Below are positions 5,637 through 12,667 of a stretch of 64,000 bases of DNA, piece by piece (the first letter of the stretch is position 1; each line of letters begins with the position of its first letter). The translations under genes and the position numbers were made by a program. Where the stretch lies: assembly GCA_037443805.1 (NCBI GenBank), contig JBBINQ010000007.1:12977-76976 (forward strand), given 5' to 3'. The notes beneath the pieces were generated by a model, which searched no databases, was not told the origin of the DNA, and saw only the letters and a list, made by a program, of their open reading frames with translations. This DNA is from a candidate division WOR-3 bacterium (GTDB lineage Bacteria; Hydrothermota; Tepidihabitantia; SM23-42; JAOAFX01).

Positions 5637-6605
5637 ATGCGTAAGATTATCTATCTTATAATAATTTTGGGTATCATTTTTTTATGCTGGCTCCAGCCCT
5701 TTAATATCGGAACGAGAGAAGTCAATATCCCGAAAAATGCTTCTGCCCGTGAGATTGCAAATATTTTAGCAAAAGAAAAGGTTGTTCGTGCAACTACTGA
5801 ATTCTTATTCTGGTTGAAGATTTTAGGTAAAGAAGGCTCTATTCGTTCAGGAAGGTTCCGATTACCAATTTACAAAAATCCAGTCTATGTTATTCAAAAA
5901 CTTGTGCAGGGTGGAAGGAGTGATATTACAATAACCATTCCTGAAGGACTTACCTTAAAAGAAATTGCTGAAATTTTGTATGCAAAGAACATAATCAAAG
6001 ACCAGGACAAATTCCTTGAATTGTGTAATAACAGAAATTTTATAAAAAATTTGGGATTGAATGTTCCATCACTGGAAGGTTATCTTTTTCCTGATACTTA
6101 TTCCTTTGATGAAGATGAGGGTGATGTGAAAATTATAACCAAAATGGTGGAAAATTTAAAAATGCAATTAAAAAAAATTACCACAATACCAGTAGATTCT
6201 TTACAAACGATAATAATTATGGCTTCATTGGTGGAAAAAGAGGCACGTCATGATGAAGAACGACCCATTATTGCCCGTGTTTTCTTTAACCGATTAAAAT
6301 TGGGACGGCCACTTGAATCCTGTGCTACAGTGATATACGCCAAAAAATTAAAAGACCCGCATCTTACAATAACCCATCTTCTAAAAAACGACCTGAAAAT
6401 TGATTCTCCCTATAATACATACCTGCACTATGGTTTACCACCTGGTCCAATCTGTTCACCAGGATTGAGTTCAATAAAATCAGCATTATATCCAGCAGAT
6501 GTTGATTATCTTTATTTTGTTTCCCGTGGGAATGGCTATCACTATTTTTCAAAAACCTATAAAGAACACCTTGCTGCCCAGGAGTATTATAATGCTAAGA
6601 AATGA
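5637..6605 (+). CDS. mltG: Endolytic murein transglycosylase MltG (YceG family)
   Basis: N-terminal TM anchor then YceG-like domain. Conserved LPPGPI and YLYFV motifs near the C-terminus. Confidence 0.8.
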   Translation: MRKIIYLIIILGIIFLCWLQPFNIGTREVNIPKNASAREIANILAKEKVVRATTEFLFWLKILGKEGSIRSGRFRLPIYKNPVYVIQKLVQGGRSDITITIPEGLTLKEIAEILYAKNIIKDQDKFLELCNNRNFIKNLGLNVPSLEGYLFPDTYSFDEDEGDVKIITKMVENLKMQLKKITTIPVDSLQTIIIMASLVEKEARHDEERPIIARVFFNRLKLGRPLESCATVIYAKKLKDPHLTITHLLKNDLKIDSPYNTYLHYGLPPGPICSPGLSSIKSALYPADVDYLYFVSRGNGYHYFSKTYKEHLAAQEYYNAKK

Positions 6606-9012
6606 ATTTGAAGAGATCTTAATTACCCAGTCACCATATTATCAGAAACTCAATAAAATTTATCGCGATTCATTAAATTTTCAGCGTTATCTCACGGTGC
6701 TGAAAAAGATTTCTAATAATGACCCAATCCTGAAACATTTTGAAGAAAAAGAGGGGAAAGAACTTGTCTTTTTAGGGAGAAAGCTCTTCAGTCTCCAGGA
6801 AGAATTTGTATCAAATTATTTAAATTTTCTTAAAGATGAATCAATGATCAGTAAATGGGATGAGTTTTTTGAACGCTATAGTAACACACTTTTTGAAATT
6901 TACAAAAGATTTACCCAAGCTGATGTTTTTAAAATTTTTATTTTTGAGATAGTAAATCGCAAACTATTAAGAGATATTCTTACAAAAGAGGTTGCCCATA
7001 GAACGATTGATGAAAAGGCATTGATTGCAGAGAGATTCGGAGTCGTGATCAACCAATTGTTCAATTATATAAGGCGTTCCCTTACCAGGAATGTGATGGT
7101 GCAAGACCGTCTGATTGTTGATTCTTATGAAAAAATTCCTTTATTCCCCAAAGTAATACGAACAGAAATTACGAAAATGATGGCAAAGATGATTTTACAG
7201 GAAGGTCTGCCCGAACCTTTATTTTCTGCTATTTTAAAACTTCTTTTAAATACCACTTACACCGAAGGGTTGCAGAATCTTATTGATAATATTAAATCAC
7301 TTGGTAAATCATTCAATCGGGAAAAAGTTATGGAGGTAATGCGTAGTCAATTTTTCTTTCCTGATGAAGAAGGCGTACTACAGGTTTTCACTGTTATTCA
7401 AAATGCTGCGCGTGGATTATGTGCTGAAATAAAAAAGAGAAAAGAGGTGTTAGAAAACCAATTAAATCAAATTGAGAATAAAATTATTGAAACCAATCGT
7501 AGTCTGGGTGAGGAGATGGTCAAAATAACCCGCGATTTTTCAACTGAGGAGGCATTGGATATTCAGATAAAAAAATTACGGCGTAACTTAATATCGTTTG
7601 GCTATGATATGAGAAAATTGCGCACTGAATATCAGGAATGCCAAAGGCAGGAAAGTGAAATGGAAGGCATATTGAAATTGAAGCCTGCAGATTTTTTAAA
7701 ATTTATCGTGAAAAATGAATGGGACCCATATCTTCTGTTCCTGATTGGTGAGAAAAAAACAATAGAAGAAGAGACATTTCAGAACCTCGTCAAGGATGTG
7801 ATCAATGAAATAAAGGGTAATAAAGAATTTATTAATAAACTCAATGACCTGCGCATCCCTGGTTTTTTAAAAGAGCGCTATAATACTACTGAAATAATGA
7901 ACAGATTTGAGAATATTGTGAAAAATATTTTTGAACCATTTTTAAAATCAGTTCTTTTAGAAGAGATGGTTGATTATTATCCTAAAGTTACCGGGACGCC
8001 AGCACCTGAAAATATACGCTATATTGCTGAAGAATCAATGAATGGCAGGGTATCAATGGTGGAGAAGGATATCAGTTCTATTACCAAGATTGAAACGCCT
8101 TCAGGATTAAATATTCAGCGATATAAAAATTTAATTTCAGTTCTGACCTATGATATAAGAGGTTCTACCCTGATGGGAACAAAATTACAGAATGCCGCAA
8201 AGGAAAATGAAATAAGAAATCTTTTTCAGGAAAGCATGCTGACCGTTATTGAAAAATTCGGAGGTCTGCCGATAAAAGATACCGGTGATGGCGGGATTAT
8301 TCTTTTTGCCAGCAATAATTATGAATTGAAGAATCAGAAGACCAAAATACCCGCGGCCGGTAGCACCCTTAATGCGGTACGCTGCGGTCTGGAAATGGTG
8401 CGGGAGTCAATCAATTTTGTCCAGGAGAATATTGAGCATTATAAAGATTGGTTTAAAGAAGCCGAGGATAGAAAGATAAATTTTGAGGGGATAACCTATG
8501 CTACTTTGCCCCCCTTGTATCAATCTATATTTCAGATTGGCGTGGGGATTGCATCGGGTGAGTATCCGAGGGAGGTCTATTTAGACCGCAATGCCTTTGG
8601 TGATTTTGATCTCACAGGAATGCTCGTGCGGGAATCAAATTTTTATTCAAAGATAAAAAGCAAAGACAAATCTACTGTAATCTGCGATGATGCCACCATT
8701 TTTAATCTTCTCTTAAATGTTGAGAAATTTTCTTTCTTTGGTGAAACTGGAGTGAAACTTACTGCAGAATCAATGGATATAGAACAGGAACTGGAATACT
8801 GGATTAATCAGAAGATTACACGCCGCGGTTTTATTCTTGACCTCTACAAAATTTTTGCTACAAAGATGGGCGAAGAAATATATCATCCCGGAAGTTTGAA
8901 AATTCTTCTCGGGGTCTTTGATATTACCATAGACGAGACCGGTGAAATAAAAGATGGAAAAGGTGGTCGGGGTAAATTTTTATTTGAACTTTCCTATGAG
9001 GTGCCCAAATGA
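6592..9012 (+). CDS. Large cytoplasmic protein with an about 520 aa helical N-terminal region and a C-terminal class III nucleotidyl-cyclase homology (CHD-like) domain (paralog A)
   Basis: The C-terminal 250 aa follow the CHD pattern. VLTYDIRGST is the counterpart of FaDivGFT, with the first metal Asp. FGGLPIKDTGDGGIILFA is the counterpart of hGGtvdKfiGDavmavFG, with the second metal Asp. IGVGIASGEY...GDFDLTGMLVRES is the counterpart of riGihtGpv..GDtVNlAsRles. STVICDDATIFNLL...FSFFGETGVKLTAES is the counterpart of ilvSeatyelL..f.feelgevelKGk. Start moved to ATG 6592 (MLRNEF), which overlaps the mltG stop by 14 nt. Confidence 0.6.
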   Translation: MLRNEFEEILITQSPYYQKLNKIYRDSLNFQRYLTVLKKISNNDPILKHFEEKEGKELVFLGRKLFSLQEEFVSNYLNFLKDESMISKWDEFFERYSNTLFEIYKRFTQADVFKIFIFEIVNRKLLRDILTKEVAHRTIDEKALIAERFGVVINQLFNYIRRSLTRNVMVQDRLIVDSYEKIPLFPKVIRTEITKMMAKMILQEGLPEPLFSAILKLLLNTTYTEGLQNLIDNIKSLGKSFNREKVMEVMRSQFFFPDEEGVLQVFTVIQNAARGLCAEIKKRKEVLENQLNQIENKIIETNRSLGEEMVKITRDFSTEEALDIQIKKLRRNLISFGYDMRKLRTEYQECQRQESEMEGILKLKPADFLKFIVKNEWDPYLLFLIGEKKTIEEETFQNLVKDVINEIKGNKEFINKLNDLRIPGFLKERYNTTEIMNRFENIVKNIFEPFLKSVLLEEMVDYYPKVTGTPAPENIRYIAEESMNGRVSMVEKDISSITKIETPSGLNIQRYKNLISVLTYDIRGSTLMGTKLQNAAKENEIRNLFQESMLTVIEKFGGLPIKDTGDGGIILFASNNYELKNQKTKIPAAGSTLNAVRCGLEMVRESINFVQENIEHYKDWFKEAEDRKINFEGITYATLPPLYQSIFQIGVGIASGEYPREVYLDRNAFGDFDLTGMLVRESNFYSKIKSKDKSTVICDDATIFNLLLNVEKFSFFGETGVKLTAESMDIEQELEYWINQKITRRGFILDLYKIFATKMGEEIYHPGSLKILLGVFDITIDETGEIKDGKGGRGKFLFELSYEVPK

Positions 9013-11279
9013 ATAAAATTAACATTGTAGATTTGCACAAGATAATTGAAGAACAGACGCAATATCTGGATTTTTTAAAAGAACGATACATTGAGTCAGT
9101 GCGTTTTCAGAAAACAATTGCGGATATAAAAGAAGGACTGGCAATATTAAACTGCCCGTCCGAGATAATCAAAAAATTTGAGGAACTGAAGATCTTTTTC
9201 ATCTGGTTGGGTAGCCCAATTACCCAATATAAAGATTATGAATGGGCACTGTATATTGGCCATAAAAAGATGGGATTGCCCATACCCGCAGGTCTAAAAG
9301 AAAAATGTCCCGAATGTATAATTGCGCTGATTGATAATCTGAAACCATACAAGGCAATCTTTGAATTTAATCAAGAATTAAGAAATTATTCATTGTCCAG
9401 CGATATCTTTTTATTAATTCACCAGTCATTTATCAACGCCCGCGTGGAAAACATCTTACCCAGTTTTCTTGTAGATATTGAGCGAATGACATTCAAAAAC
9501 AATACTGAAGCAATGGAAAAGATACCTTCTGTCTATTTTGACTACCTGTCAGAACCCTCTTTATTAAAGATTTTGAAAAAGATTGGAACGATGCTACAGC
9601 GTGATAAAGAGAGAATCACTGAAGAATTGCGGAGCATTGATTTGTATTCAATGCGATTAAAAGAACAGCTTACGGCACTGTATATGGAAACGAACGCCGG
9701 GCTAAAGGATATTCTTGATAACTTAGTAGCCAAAGGCGCAGATATTGAATTAATAACCCAGAAAACTTCAAATCTTTTTTCCCGCCTGGAAAGATTGTTT
9801 CTTGGTAATGTTTATCATCTTAAGGAATATGACCAGCGGCGCGATGAATTGCAAAAATTTCTAAAAGAAGAAGAAGAGTTGAAACTGTTAGTAGAGAATA
9901 GGAGGCTGGATAAGAAAAAGCCGATCAGCGAATTATTCAGAGAAATTTCATTCTGTTATAAATATGGAGATTTAACACCTCAGGAAGAGAAACTATTTGC
10001 AAAAAATATAATGAGTAATTTTGAGGAATTACATAAGCAGAAACACCGAGACCTGCCACTAATCGCAAAATTTGAAAGAAAAGCCTTGTTGGGCGTTGAC
10101 CTTGATATAAATGCAGTAAAAGAAGCCTATCTTTCATTTATAAAAAAAGAATTGATACCGACCCATATGGGTAATTGTCTATATGATATTGTCAATTGTT
10201 TACCTCCAGGTAGTAAAGAATCTAAGAAAGTGATAAAGGACATCGCCAACTTTACATATTTTCAACTTGAAGGAAAAGAGATTTTGAATGTGCGAAAGAA
10301 GAGTACACCCCTGTCCGATGAATTGCAGAAATTCCTTGAGCAGTACCGAAAGACGATTACTGTGCTGGTCTATGATATTCGTGGTTCCTCATATATGGGT
10401 ATTAAATTGCATAATGCATTAAAAGAACAGCGTATAAAATATAAATTTGCCAAAGAAATGGCAACCATCGGTAAAAATTACGGAGGTTTTTTACTAAAAG
10501 ACACTGGTGACGGAGGTATAATCTGGTTTGCTGATAATTCACAGAGTTTATATAACCACCTTTATACAGAATCTACTACAGGTAAAGGAGTTAATTTGCG
10601 TTATTCAATATTTTCTGGCGCAGAATTAGAATTGATACCGGCTGGAGATGCCGCAAAAAGAGCGATCCAGTGTGCAAGGGATATGGTGATTAAGGCAGAG
10701 GAATTCATTCGTGCAAATTTTGTGCATTATCGCGATTGGTTCGCATCGGTTGCGGAAAGGACAATGGAAGTTGATGGTGTCACCTATGCCCTTTTGCCGC
10801 CTGAATTTAAAACGCTCTTTAGAATTGGTGTGGGTATTGCCTCGGGAATACCAGAAAGGGATGTGGTACTGTCAGCAAATTCTTTTGGTGACCCGGATCT
10901 AGTAGGCCCAATCCTTGCTGATGCACATCTTTATTCTATGGAACGCCAGCCCGGGCGTTCTGTAGTAATCTGTGATTTACCTACATTTATCAATTTTATG
11001 CTGAACACAGAAAATTTTGAATTTCCTATTGATGAATCAGTTTTTGAGAAATATTTAAGGATTCTGGATGATGTTCGCAAACTACCCCATGGGTATCTGT
11101 ATCCAGAGCTGAAGATTTCTATAGCACTCAGGGGATTGCATATTCTTGAGGAACTTGATAAGAAGAGGGCATTATCTGAAATGAAATCGGGTAATTTGCT
11201 GATTGATGAACTCGGCAACATCTATAACGAAGATAAGAAAAAGGCAAAACCCTTCTATGAAATCATACCGATACAATGA
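9009..11279 (+). CDS. Large cytoplasmic protein with an about 440 aa helical N-terminal region and a C-terminal CHD-like nucleotidyl-cyclase homology domain (paralog B, probably catalytically degenerate)
   Basis: VLVYDIRGSS, GGFLLKDTGDGGIIWFA, IGVGIASGIPE...GDPDLVGPILADAH and SVVICDLPTFINFML are collinear with paralog A. The Arg of the VNxAxR element is absent. ATGA overlap with the upstream and downstream genes. Confidence 0.6.
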   Translation: MNKINIVDLHKIIEEQTQYLDFLKERYIESVRFQKTIADIKEGLAILNCPSEIIKKFEELKIFFIWLGSPITQYKDYEWALYIGHKKMGLPIPAGLKEKCPECIIALIDNLKPYKAIFEFNQELRNYSLSSDIFLLIHQSFINARVENILPSFLVDIERMTFKNNTEAMEKIPSVYFDYLSEPSLLKILKKIGTMLQRDKERITEELRSIDLYSMRLKEQLTALYMETNAGLKDILDNLVAKGADIELITQKTSNLFSRLERLFLGNVYHLKEYDQRRDELQKFLKEEEELKLLVENRRLDKKKPISELFREISFCYKYGDLTPQEEKLFAKNIMSNFEELHKQKHRDLPLIAKFERKALLGVDLDINAVKEAYLSFIKKELIPTHMGNCLYDIVNCLPPGSKESKKVIKDIANFTYFQLEGKEILNVRKKSTPLSDELQKFLEQYRKTITVLVYDIRGSSYMGIKLHNALKEQRIKYKFAKEMATIGKNYGGFLLKDTGDGGIIWFADNSQSLYNHLYTESTTGKGVNLRYSIFSGAELELIPAGDAAKRAIQCARDMVIKAEEFIRANFVHYRDWFASVAERTMEVDGVTYALLPPEFKTLFRIGVGIASGIPERDVVLSANSFGDPDLVGPILADAHLYSMERQPGRSVVICDLPTFINFMLNTENFEFPIDESVFEKYLRILDDVRKLPHGYLYPELKISIALRGLHILEELDKKRALSEMKSGNLLIDELGNIYNEDKKKAKPFYEIIPIQ

Positions 11280-12667
11280 AAGTTCTACTTTATCATCCTG
11301 TTTCCAAGCATAAAAATCGTTTAATTGATTATTTAAAGAAATTGAATCTTGAAGTTTTTACGGTATTAAAATCTTCTGCAATAGTGCCAGCAATCAAAAG
11401 ACAAAATATTGATATTATAATAATTCACTTTGATGCAGATAAAGCAATTGCAAACATTGAGAAATCAAAATTTGCGATACCTGTTATCCTCATCGCCTCT
11501 GCCCAGGATAAGATTAATTATGAGAGATTGATTATTCCTGATACGGTCGGTATTATTAGACCACCGTATACATTATCTAATTTAAAGAAAGTTATACAAA
11601 AGGCAATTAAGAAGCGCGAAGAGAATATTTTTAATTTGAAAACAGTTGAGTCGTTAAAAAGAAAAGTAAAAGAAATGGAGACCCTTAATGAGATTGTCAG
11701 GGCAATAAATTCTTCCTTGCGGCCCAAGGAGATTTTAAAAATTATTATGGAGAAGACTGCTGATTTTGTCAAAGCAGAAGGTTGGTCTATCCTTCTGCTT
11801 GATAAAGAGAAACAAGAATTGGTATTTGAGGCGGCGGCTGGTGAGGCGGGTCAGAAATTGATCGGGATTAGATTAAAAATCAATCAGGGGGTTGCGGGTT
11901 GGGTTGCACGCACTGGCAAGCCCTTAATTGTTGAAGATGTGACAAAAGACCCGAGGTTTTATGATGGGGTTGATAAAAAGACAAAATTTATAACAAAGTC
12001 TATTCTCTGTGTACCAATGAAAAGTGGCAATGAAATCCTTGGTGTGGTTGAAGTTGTCAATAAAGTTGGAGGCGAACCATTTACCAAAGATGATTTAGAG
12101 ATCTTTGAAAATCTGGTTCAGCACATAACCATTGCCCTGCGCAATGCCCAGCTCTATAATAAAATGGAAGAGACGAGCATTACCGATGATTTAACAAAAT
12201 TATATAATACACGTTACTGCAATCACATTCTTGATGAATTTATTAGAGAAAGGCTCGCTACCCGGGCAAAGATTTCATTGATATTCTTTGATGTGGACTT
12301 TTTTAAACTGGTTGATGATAATTATGGGCATCTGGTTGGAAGTGAGACCCTGCGCTTGATTGGTGAAAGGGCAAAGGCAGTGATCAGGGATAAAGATATT
12401 GCGGTGCGCTATGGTGGAGATGAGTATATAATTGTCTTGCCGGATACGGACAAACCTACTGCCGCAGTTATTGCTGAAAGGATAAGAAAAGCGATTGAAG
12501 AAAAACCATTTCCTGCACAGGATGGCAAAAGTTTCAATGTAACAGTTACCCTTGGCGTTGCTACCTTTCCTGAAGATGCACTTTCGCGTGATGATTTGAT
12601 TGGTCGCGCAGATAAGGCAATGTACGAAGGTAAGATGACGGGTCGGAACAGGGTCGTTGTTGTCTGA
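11276..12667 (+). CDS. Diguanylate cyclase with an N-terminal REC-like (probable pseudo-receiver) domain, a GAF domain and a C-terminal GGDEF domain (GGDEY variant, I-site RxxD present)
   Basis: REC-like N-terminus lacks the acidic pocket (KVLLYHPVSKH; IIIIHFDAD). GAF region has ...VAGWVARTGKPLIVEDV.... GGDEF region has DDLTKLYNTRY...RDKDIAVRYGGDEYIIVLPDT. Confidence 0.8.
   Translation: MKVLLYHPVSKHKNRLIDYLKKLNLEVFTVLKSSAIVPAIKRQNIDIIIIHFDADKAIANIEKSKFAIPVILIASAQDKINYERLIIPDTVGIIRPPYTLSNLKKVIQKAIKKREENIFNLKTVESLKRKVKEMETLNEIVRAINSSLRPKEILKIIMEKTADFVKAEGWSILLLDKEKQELVFEAAAGEAGQKLIGIRLKINQGVAGWVARTGKPLIVEDVTKDPRFYDGVDKKTKFITKSILCVPMKSGNEILGVVEVVNKVGGEPFTKDDLEIFENLVQHITIALRNAQLYNKMEETSITDDLTKLYNTRYCNHILDEFIRERLATRAKISLIFFDVDFFKLVDDNYGHLVGSETLRLIGERAKAVIRDKDIAVRYGGDEYIIVLPDTDKPTAAVIAERIRKAIEEKPFPAQDGKSFNVTVTLGVATFPEDALSRDDLIGRADKAMYEGKMTGRNRVVVV

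Follow-up and report, generated by a model that had tools for sequence, protein, structure and literature searches.

The analysed window was a 64,000-nucleotide stretch of a candidate division WOR-3 genome, in which four overlapping genes formed a block, mltG-A-B-C, on the plus strand. The first gene of this conserved block (5637..6605) was mltG (YceG-like), assigned from the list of open reading frames and from Pfam YceG matches at orthologous loci. It was followed by gene A (6592..9012, 806 aa), gene B (9009..11279, 756 aa) and gene C (11276..12667, 463 aa), all on the plus strand. The start of gene A was set by its start codon and by ortholog lengths. An 837-aa open reading frame from 6499 was rejected, as it began too early for a family whose orthologs were 805-806 aa long. 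Reading of the junction sequences revealed a 14-nt overlap between the mltG stop and the start of A and an ATGA overlap at both the A/B and the B/C junctions. The interval 9009-11279 had been flagged in the initial annotation, and it agreed exactly with the bounds of the 756-aa gene B on the plus strand. The description of A and B as a tandem, translationally coupled pair was likewise confirmed by the ATGA overlap, the two genes lying side by side and overlapping at each intact WOR-3 locus examined.

The block of overlapping genes was recovered at all intact WOR-3 loci examined, including those with orthologs of 35-38% identity, and in almost all WOR-3 loci phmmer located mltG upstream of A. 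Outside WOR-3 the gene co-occurrence was judged from the best 80 of 129 related stretches. Besides the WOR-3 loci, at least three genomes contained both an A-type and a B-type gene, unlinked. Many B-type genes of the other phyla had no A-type gene among the best 80 of the 129 stretches, hence the A/B pairing may not be universal. Such B-type genes accompanied a GGDEF gene, and the solitary A-type genes were situated between rplQ and valS. A 715-aa protein encoded upstream of the lone B-type gene of locus L004 was considered as a diverged A-type partner and was rejected as a coiled-coil/TPR protein; a weak match of it to the cyclase HMM was recorded. The neighbours were housekeeping genes, and neither a defence-island context nor an effector gene, as in Pycsar, was found at the loci.

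Based on these comparisons, it was concluded that A and B are full-length paralogs belonging to a small, sharply delimited and deeply divergent family. The two proteins were 40% identical across the C-terminal 250 aa, and their profile-profile alignment, with an E-value of 1e-64, spanned nearly the full lengths of both. The family, with 148 members, was confined to WOR-3 and the candidate phyla near it, namely Stahlbacteria, TA06, Edwardsbacteria, Cloacimonadota and UBP2; in a set of 1.84 billion representative proteins it made up about 50 clusters. In A, a helical N-terminal region (residues ~1-500) preceded the cyclase-like domain (residues ~508-806); across both proteins the helical part measured 440-500 aa. 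Residues 138-223 of B displayed similarity to GapR/UPF0335, possibly reflecting coiled-coil composition.

The C-terminal domain of the family is a class III nucleotidyl-cyclase fold. The AF2 model of gene A (pLDDT 78) was used for a Foldseek search, and the top 50 matches were all class III cyclases, with TM values of up to 0.76. The βααββαβ palm fold of the CHD was found in the cyclase-like domain of A/B, interrupted by two large family-specific insertions, α3-β4 and α5-β7, which contained invariant residues (HYRDWF, TYAxLPP). The model of B was of low confidence around the α4 region (pLDDT 55-65). No match, to PF00211 (Guanylate_cyc) or any other model, was returned by Pfam either with full-length A and B at E up to 1 or with the isolated domains at E up to 10, and NCBIfam gave no match at all for A and no cyclase match for B. 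Membership in the DUF2652 family was ruled out, as the Pfam DUF2652 model matched neither protein. Some sources labelled the orthologs 'class 3 adenylate cyclase' or 'Guanylate cyclase domain-containing protein'. The A/B family may be a cyclase-fold family not previously described, which has been missed by Pfam and NCBIfam.

The cyclase-like domain of A was delimited at 8113..9009 (plus strand) by residue conservation, HMMER alignment to CyaB and Cya2 and the hhalign register, and that of B at 10335..11276 (plus strand) by residue conservation and HMMER alignment to CyaB. The residues considered in A were D521 (8152), R523 (8158), K562 (8275), D566 (8287), Q648 (8533), D673 (8608), G676 (8617), R680 (8629), N683 (8638) and K790 (8959). 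In B these were D456 (10374), R458 (10380), K497 (10497), D501 (10509) and R575 (10731), followed by R605 (10821), D630 (10896), G633 (10905), A637 (10917) and H640 (10926), all on the plus strand. The initial annotation had stated that both paralogs keep the two metal-binding Asp residues. This was borne out by HMMER, which aligned D521/D566 and D456/D501 to the corresponding motifs, FSDIRGFT and KFVGD, in CyaB and Cya2; in class III cyclases these two Asp lie on β1 and in the β2-β3 turn. K562 of A and K497 of B, four residues before the second Asp, aligned to the Lys of the KFVGD motif. The metal Asp pair, this Lys, the base Asp and the Arg of DIRGS were 100% conserved in both subfamilies (n=148), and the Gly-Ser/Thr of the phosphate loop was invariant in the 148 sequences. 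In class III cyclases the base-specifying pair is Lys/Asp for ATP and Glu/Cys for GTP. Both members of a Lys/Asp pair were present, as K562/K497 and D673/D630, the Asp being placed by a weak profile alignment (E = 0.04). Lys and Asp at these positions constitute an adenine signature (PMC4886424; PMC6005667).

Two motif strings had earlier been quoted as the equivalents of GDtVNxAxR. Both were located as reported, GDFDLTGMLVRES at residues 670-682 of A (8599..8637, plus strand) and GDPDLVGPILADAH at residues 627-640 of B (10887..10928, plus strand). Their equivalence to GDtVNxAxR was not upheld, since the profile alignment, the secondary structure of the model and the LVNEA motif of the relatives indicated that the register was probably shifted. 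In the better-supported register, D673-L-T-G676-M-L-V-R680 of A corresponded to yD-v-w-G-d-t-V-N, with G676 as the Gly of wG. The base Asp was thereby D673/D630 and the Asn position was occupied by R680/A637, the same result being obtained by hhalign whether 16 or 148 family sequences were used, in a second-half alignment to canonical cyclases that was statistically weak (E = 0.04-0.08). The reference alignment consisted of the AC8, AC9 and CyaB sequences and a hand-written consensus-like sequence, with which the references had been recovered from the PDB. Profile searches of the PDB with the full-length alignments of A and B aligned cyclases to the first half of the domain only. A global hhalign of the whole domain was discarded, as a 40-60-aa insertion misplaced the second half, and a local alignment of the second half was used instead. 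The boundaries in model A (strand 672-675, helix 677-686) agreed with this register, and the VN[ED]A motif of the B-type proteins outside WOR-3 matched it. It was also consistent with the canonical spacings of +7 from Asp to Asn and +4 from Lys to Asp (Table 1 of PMC6005667).

With this register, neither protein had the Asn that binds ribose where α4 begins: the position was taken by Arg680 in A and by Ala637 in B. The canonical phosphate/transition-state Arg of α4, expected at Asn +4, was also absent from both; F684 and L641 were found there, and the position was hydrophobic family-wide. The claim of an Arg retained and an Asn lost in A was therefore only loosely true: Arg680 is present, but it sits at the Asn position, one helical turn before the canonical Arg position, which is F684. 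The companion claim, that B has neither residue, was correct for A637 and L641. Loss of the Asn did not extend to the whole family, as most B-type proteins outside WOR-3 still had VN[ED]A. The β4 register was ambiguous, hhalign aligning the canonical Arg with G607/G650, which lie two residues past R605/Q648.

Unsupervised clustering divided the 148 family sequences into 58 A-type and 90 B-type members. At the R680/A637 position Arg was found in all 58 A-type sequences, and the B-type sequences contained Asn (28 of 90, in relatives outside WOR-3), Ala (26), Ser (20) or Asp (13). At the N683/H640 position Asn was recorded in 56 of 58 A-type sequences, and at K790, the Lys of the β7-β8 KGG, Lys was recorded in 53 of 58; both positions were variable in the B-type. 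At the β4 position (Q648/R605) the difference was reciprocal, with Gln in 55/58 A-type and Arg in 89/90 B-type sequences. The discriminating positions were few, and all of them lay on structural elements lining the active site of class III cyclases (β4, α4 and β7-β8). Judged from the aligned sequences, the family split long ago into two subfamilies, A-type and B-type, and the asymmetry between them is real and old. The base, ribose and phosphate face was degenerate in B and conserved in A, and A, with Gln in place of the β4 Arg of B, had an intact metal Asp pair and DIRGS Arg. That the metal face of B is strictly conserved while its opposite face is degenerate implies that a partner provides the latter.

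The protein encoded by gene C consisted of a pseudo-receiver, a cNMP-type GAF domain (about 11723..12145, plus strand; Pfam GAF) and a GGDEF domain (about 12179..12652, plus strand; Pfam GGDEF), with GGDEY at residue 380 and an I-site, RDKD, at residue 371. The best PDB match of the GAF domain was Lcd1 (5W10; E = 7e-30, 38% identity), followed by PDE5, PDE2, PDE6, PDE10 and CyaB2, all of them cNMP-binding GAF domains. The GAF domain of Lcd1 from Leptospira binds cAMP and activates its GGDEF domain (PDB 5W10). At the loci examined, a GAF-GGDEY gene almost always came directly after the B-type gene. Among the gene C orthologs, GGDEY was present in 69 of 72 and the RxxD I-site in 42 of 72. The occurrence of GGDEY rather than GGDEF was counted against a relay from cyclic nucleotide to c-di-GMP.

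We proposed that A and B probably work together as a two-protein enzyme in which one catalytic pocket is well equipped, and that gene C reads its cyclic-nucleotide product. The two proteins would assemble head-to-tail, with two differing pockets at the interface. Pocket X would combine the metal/phosphate face of B (D456, D501, R458 and R605) with the base/ribose/phosphate face of A, to which K562, D673, R680, N683 and probably K790 would contribute. As the residues of pocket X are each conserved in their own subfamily, most of them invariantly, it is the predicted catalytic site. There, R680, located at the canonical Asn position, would take over the transition-state role by substituting for the Asn/α4 Arg. 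Pocket Y would contain D521, D566 and Q648 of A together with K497, D630 and A637 of B and would lack the Arg, Asn and Lys residues; it would probably be a non-catalytic or regulatory nucleotide pocket. From the invariant Lys/Asp pair, ATP was predicted as the substrate and cAMP as the product. This product would be sensed by the GAF domain of the next, translationally coupled gene, so that cyclic-nucleotide synthesis would switch on c-di-GMP synthesis. Such a cAMP -> c-di-GMP cascade is proposed as a new version of relays already known (XC_0250/XC_0249, Lcd1).

A probability of roughly 0.5 was assigned to a head-to-tail A/B heterodimer having non-equivalent pockets and a probable cAMP product sensed by gene C. 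The more demanding combination, in which an obligate two-subunit enzyme of a new family, the transition-state role of R680 and probable cAMP driving gene C in the mltG operon all hold jointly, is more tentative and has somewhat less than an even chance. The asymmetric heterodimer with one active site had been suggested in the initial annotation, and the ancient subfamilies, the discriminating positions in the active site and the adjacency of A and B in WOR-3 were in its favour. The split was nevertheless not a clean C1/C2 one, as the metal/phosphate face of A itself (D521, D566 and R523) was complete.

Because this face of A is intact and its opposite face is better than that of B, homodimers of A could have full activity in the absence of B. 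A would then act as a homodimer with no A/B heterodimer being formed, and B would be a catalytically poor or inactive homodimer that serves as a nucleotide-binding regulator or adaptor for the GAF-GGDEY protein. Both faces are complete in A alone (D521, D566, R523, K562, D673, R680, N683 and K790), A-type genes (at rplQ/valS) and B-type genes (with a GGDEF gene) occur alone outside WOR-3, and the family member P0248 unites both Arg residues in one protein. Self-pairing of B is, however, hard to reconcile with metal Asp residues, a DIRGS Arg and a β4 Arg that are invariant in 89-90 of 90 sequences while the opposite face varies. The β4 Gln of A against the Arg of B is a reciprocal fixed difference, and A and B are translationally coupled throughout WOR-3. 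Separate A and B homodimers were regarded as unlikely, at about one chance in five.

Somewhat less probable still is that A and B are pseudo-enzymes, cyclase-like sensors that bind a nucleotide, ATP or another, and regulate the diguanylate cyclase through protein contact, without synthesis of a cyclic nucleotide. The canonical α4 Arg missing from both proteins, the replaced Asn and the isolated domains undetected by the Pfam and NCBIfam cyclase models (even at E up to 10) would be in line with such proteins. However, the metal Asp residues, the phosphate-loop Gly-Ser/Thr, the Cya2-type Arg and the Lys/Asp pair are invariant (n=148), beyond the needs of simple binding, and the downstream cNMP-type GAF domain calls for a source of cNMP. 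Established cyclases without the Asn also exist, for example Rv1900c (PMC4886424). An active enzyme with a product other than cAMP, be it another cyclic mononucleotide such as cGMP, cCMP or cUMP, or that of a non-cyclising nucleotidyl transfer (an alternative raised in the initial annotation), appeared improbable: the non-canonical ribose and transition-state positions and the two insertions with their invariant residues would allow for it, but the Lys/Asp pair is the adenine signature, cAMP is the ligand of the closest GAF relative and the housekeeping neighbours include no Pycsar-like defence island or effector gene.

Bacterial class III cyclases are generally regarded as homodimers with two equal sites, and to our knowledge heterodimeric cyclases that pair a catalytic with a regulatory pocket have been described chiefly in eukaryotes. 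In the literature searched, no bacterial two-gene heterodimeric cyclase was found, nor any paper on WOR-3 together with adenylate cyclase, nor a characterised second-messenger system in WOR-3, Stahlbacteria, TA06, Edwardsbacteria or Cloacimonadota. If the heterodimer model is true, the A/B pair would represent, in bacteria, an independent case of the C1/C2 design of eukaryotes, made of two genetically separable genes, and would lend itself to probing the function of a degenerate pocket. It would add a cyclase-fold family beyond current domain libraries and would provide Lcd1-type GAF-GGDEF enzymes with the cNMP source that has been missing. Cyclic-nucleotide signalling would further be tied to c-di-GMP, and possibly to cell-wall growth through the mltG operon, in WOR-3 and related uncultured phyla. 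For WOR-3, Stahlbacteria, TA06, Edwardsbacteria and Cloacimonadota, this would be a first signalling pathway open to testing.

Among known systems, A and B resembled the class IIIb cyclases CyaB of P. aeruginosa (3R5G), Cya2 of Synechocystis (2W01) and CyaC of Spirulina (1WC0) in the DxRG(F/S)T motif of the first Asp and the K-x-x-G-D motif of the second. The phosphate-binding Arg of Cya2, Arg450, lies in the first-Asp motif (PMC6005667, Table 1) and corresponds to R523 in A and R458 in B. Unlike these cyclases, A and B had identities to them below 20%, no PF00211 match, two large insertions, neither the canonical Asn nor the α4 Arg, and a helical N-terminus of 440-500 aa, and were two paralogous subunits rather than one homodimeric protein. 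The DUF2652 family is class III cyclase-like by remote homology only, with the metal Asp conserved and the Asn missing (Ramakrishnan et al. 2016, PMC4886424), and A and B were similar to it in all these respects. DUF2652 proteins are, however, single-domain, about 250 aa long and found in Actinobacteria, Bacteroidetes and Proteobacteria, whereas the architecture and distribution of A/B differ.

The adjoining of cyclase genes and a diguanylate cyclase with a cNMP-sensor domain was shared with Xanthomonas, where the cyclase XC_0250 is linked to the cGMP-activated diguanylate cyclase XC_0249 (PMC3770947). The sensor of gene C was a GAF domain, as in Lcd1, in contrast to the CAP-type domain of XC_0249. 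Gene C differed from both in the extra N-terminal pseudo-receiver, the GGDEY motif and a cyclase partner that is a divergent A/B pair.

The C1/C2 adenylyl cyclases, the α/β soluble guanylyl cyclase (sGC) and chytrid NeoR/RGC have two diverged domains that form one competent and one degenerate pocket, and the degenerate pocket of these pseudo-heterodimeric eukaryotic cyclases can be regulatory (PMC8815786; PMC6005667). The putative pocket Y was likened to the site at which forskolin binds membrane adenylyl cyclases or, in sGC, to the pseudosymmetric site. Unlike the eukaryotic proteins, A and B are encoded by separate bacterial genes and arose by an independent duplication within a very divergent bacterial family. 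B resembled C1/α, as its metal face was kept and its opposite face degenerate. A resembled C2/β in keeping the base, ribose and phosphate face, but differed from both C2 and β in retaining the metal Asp.

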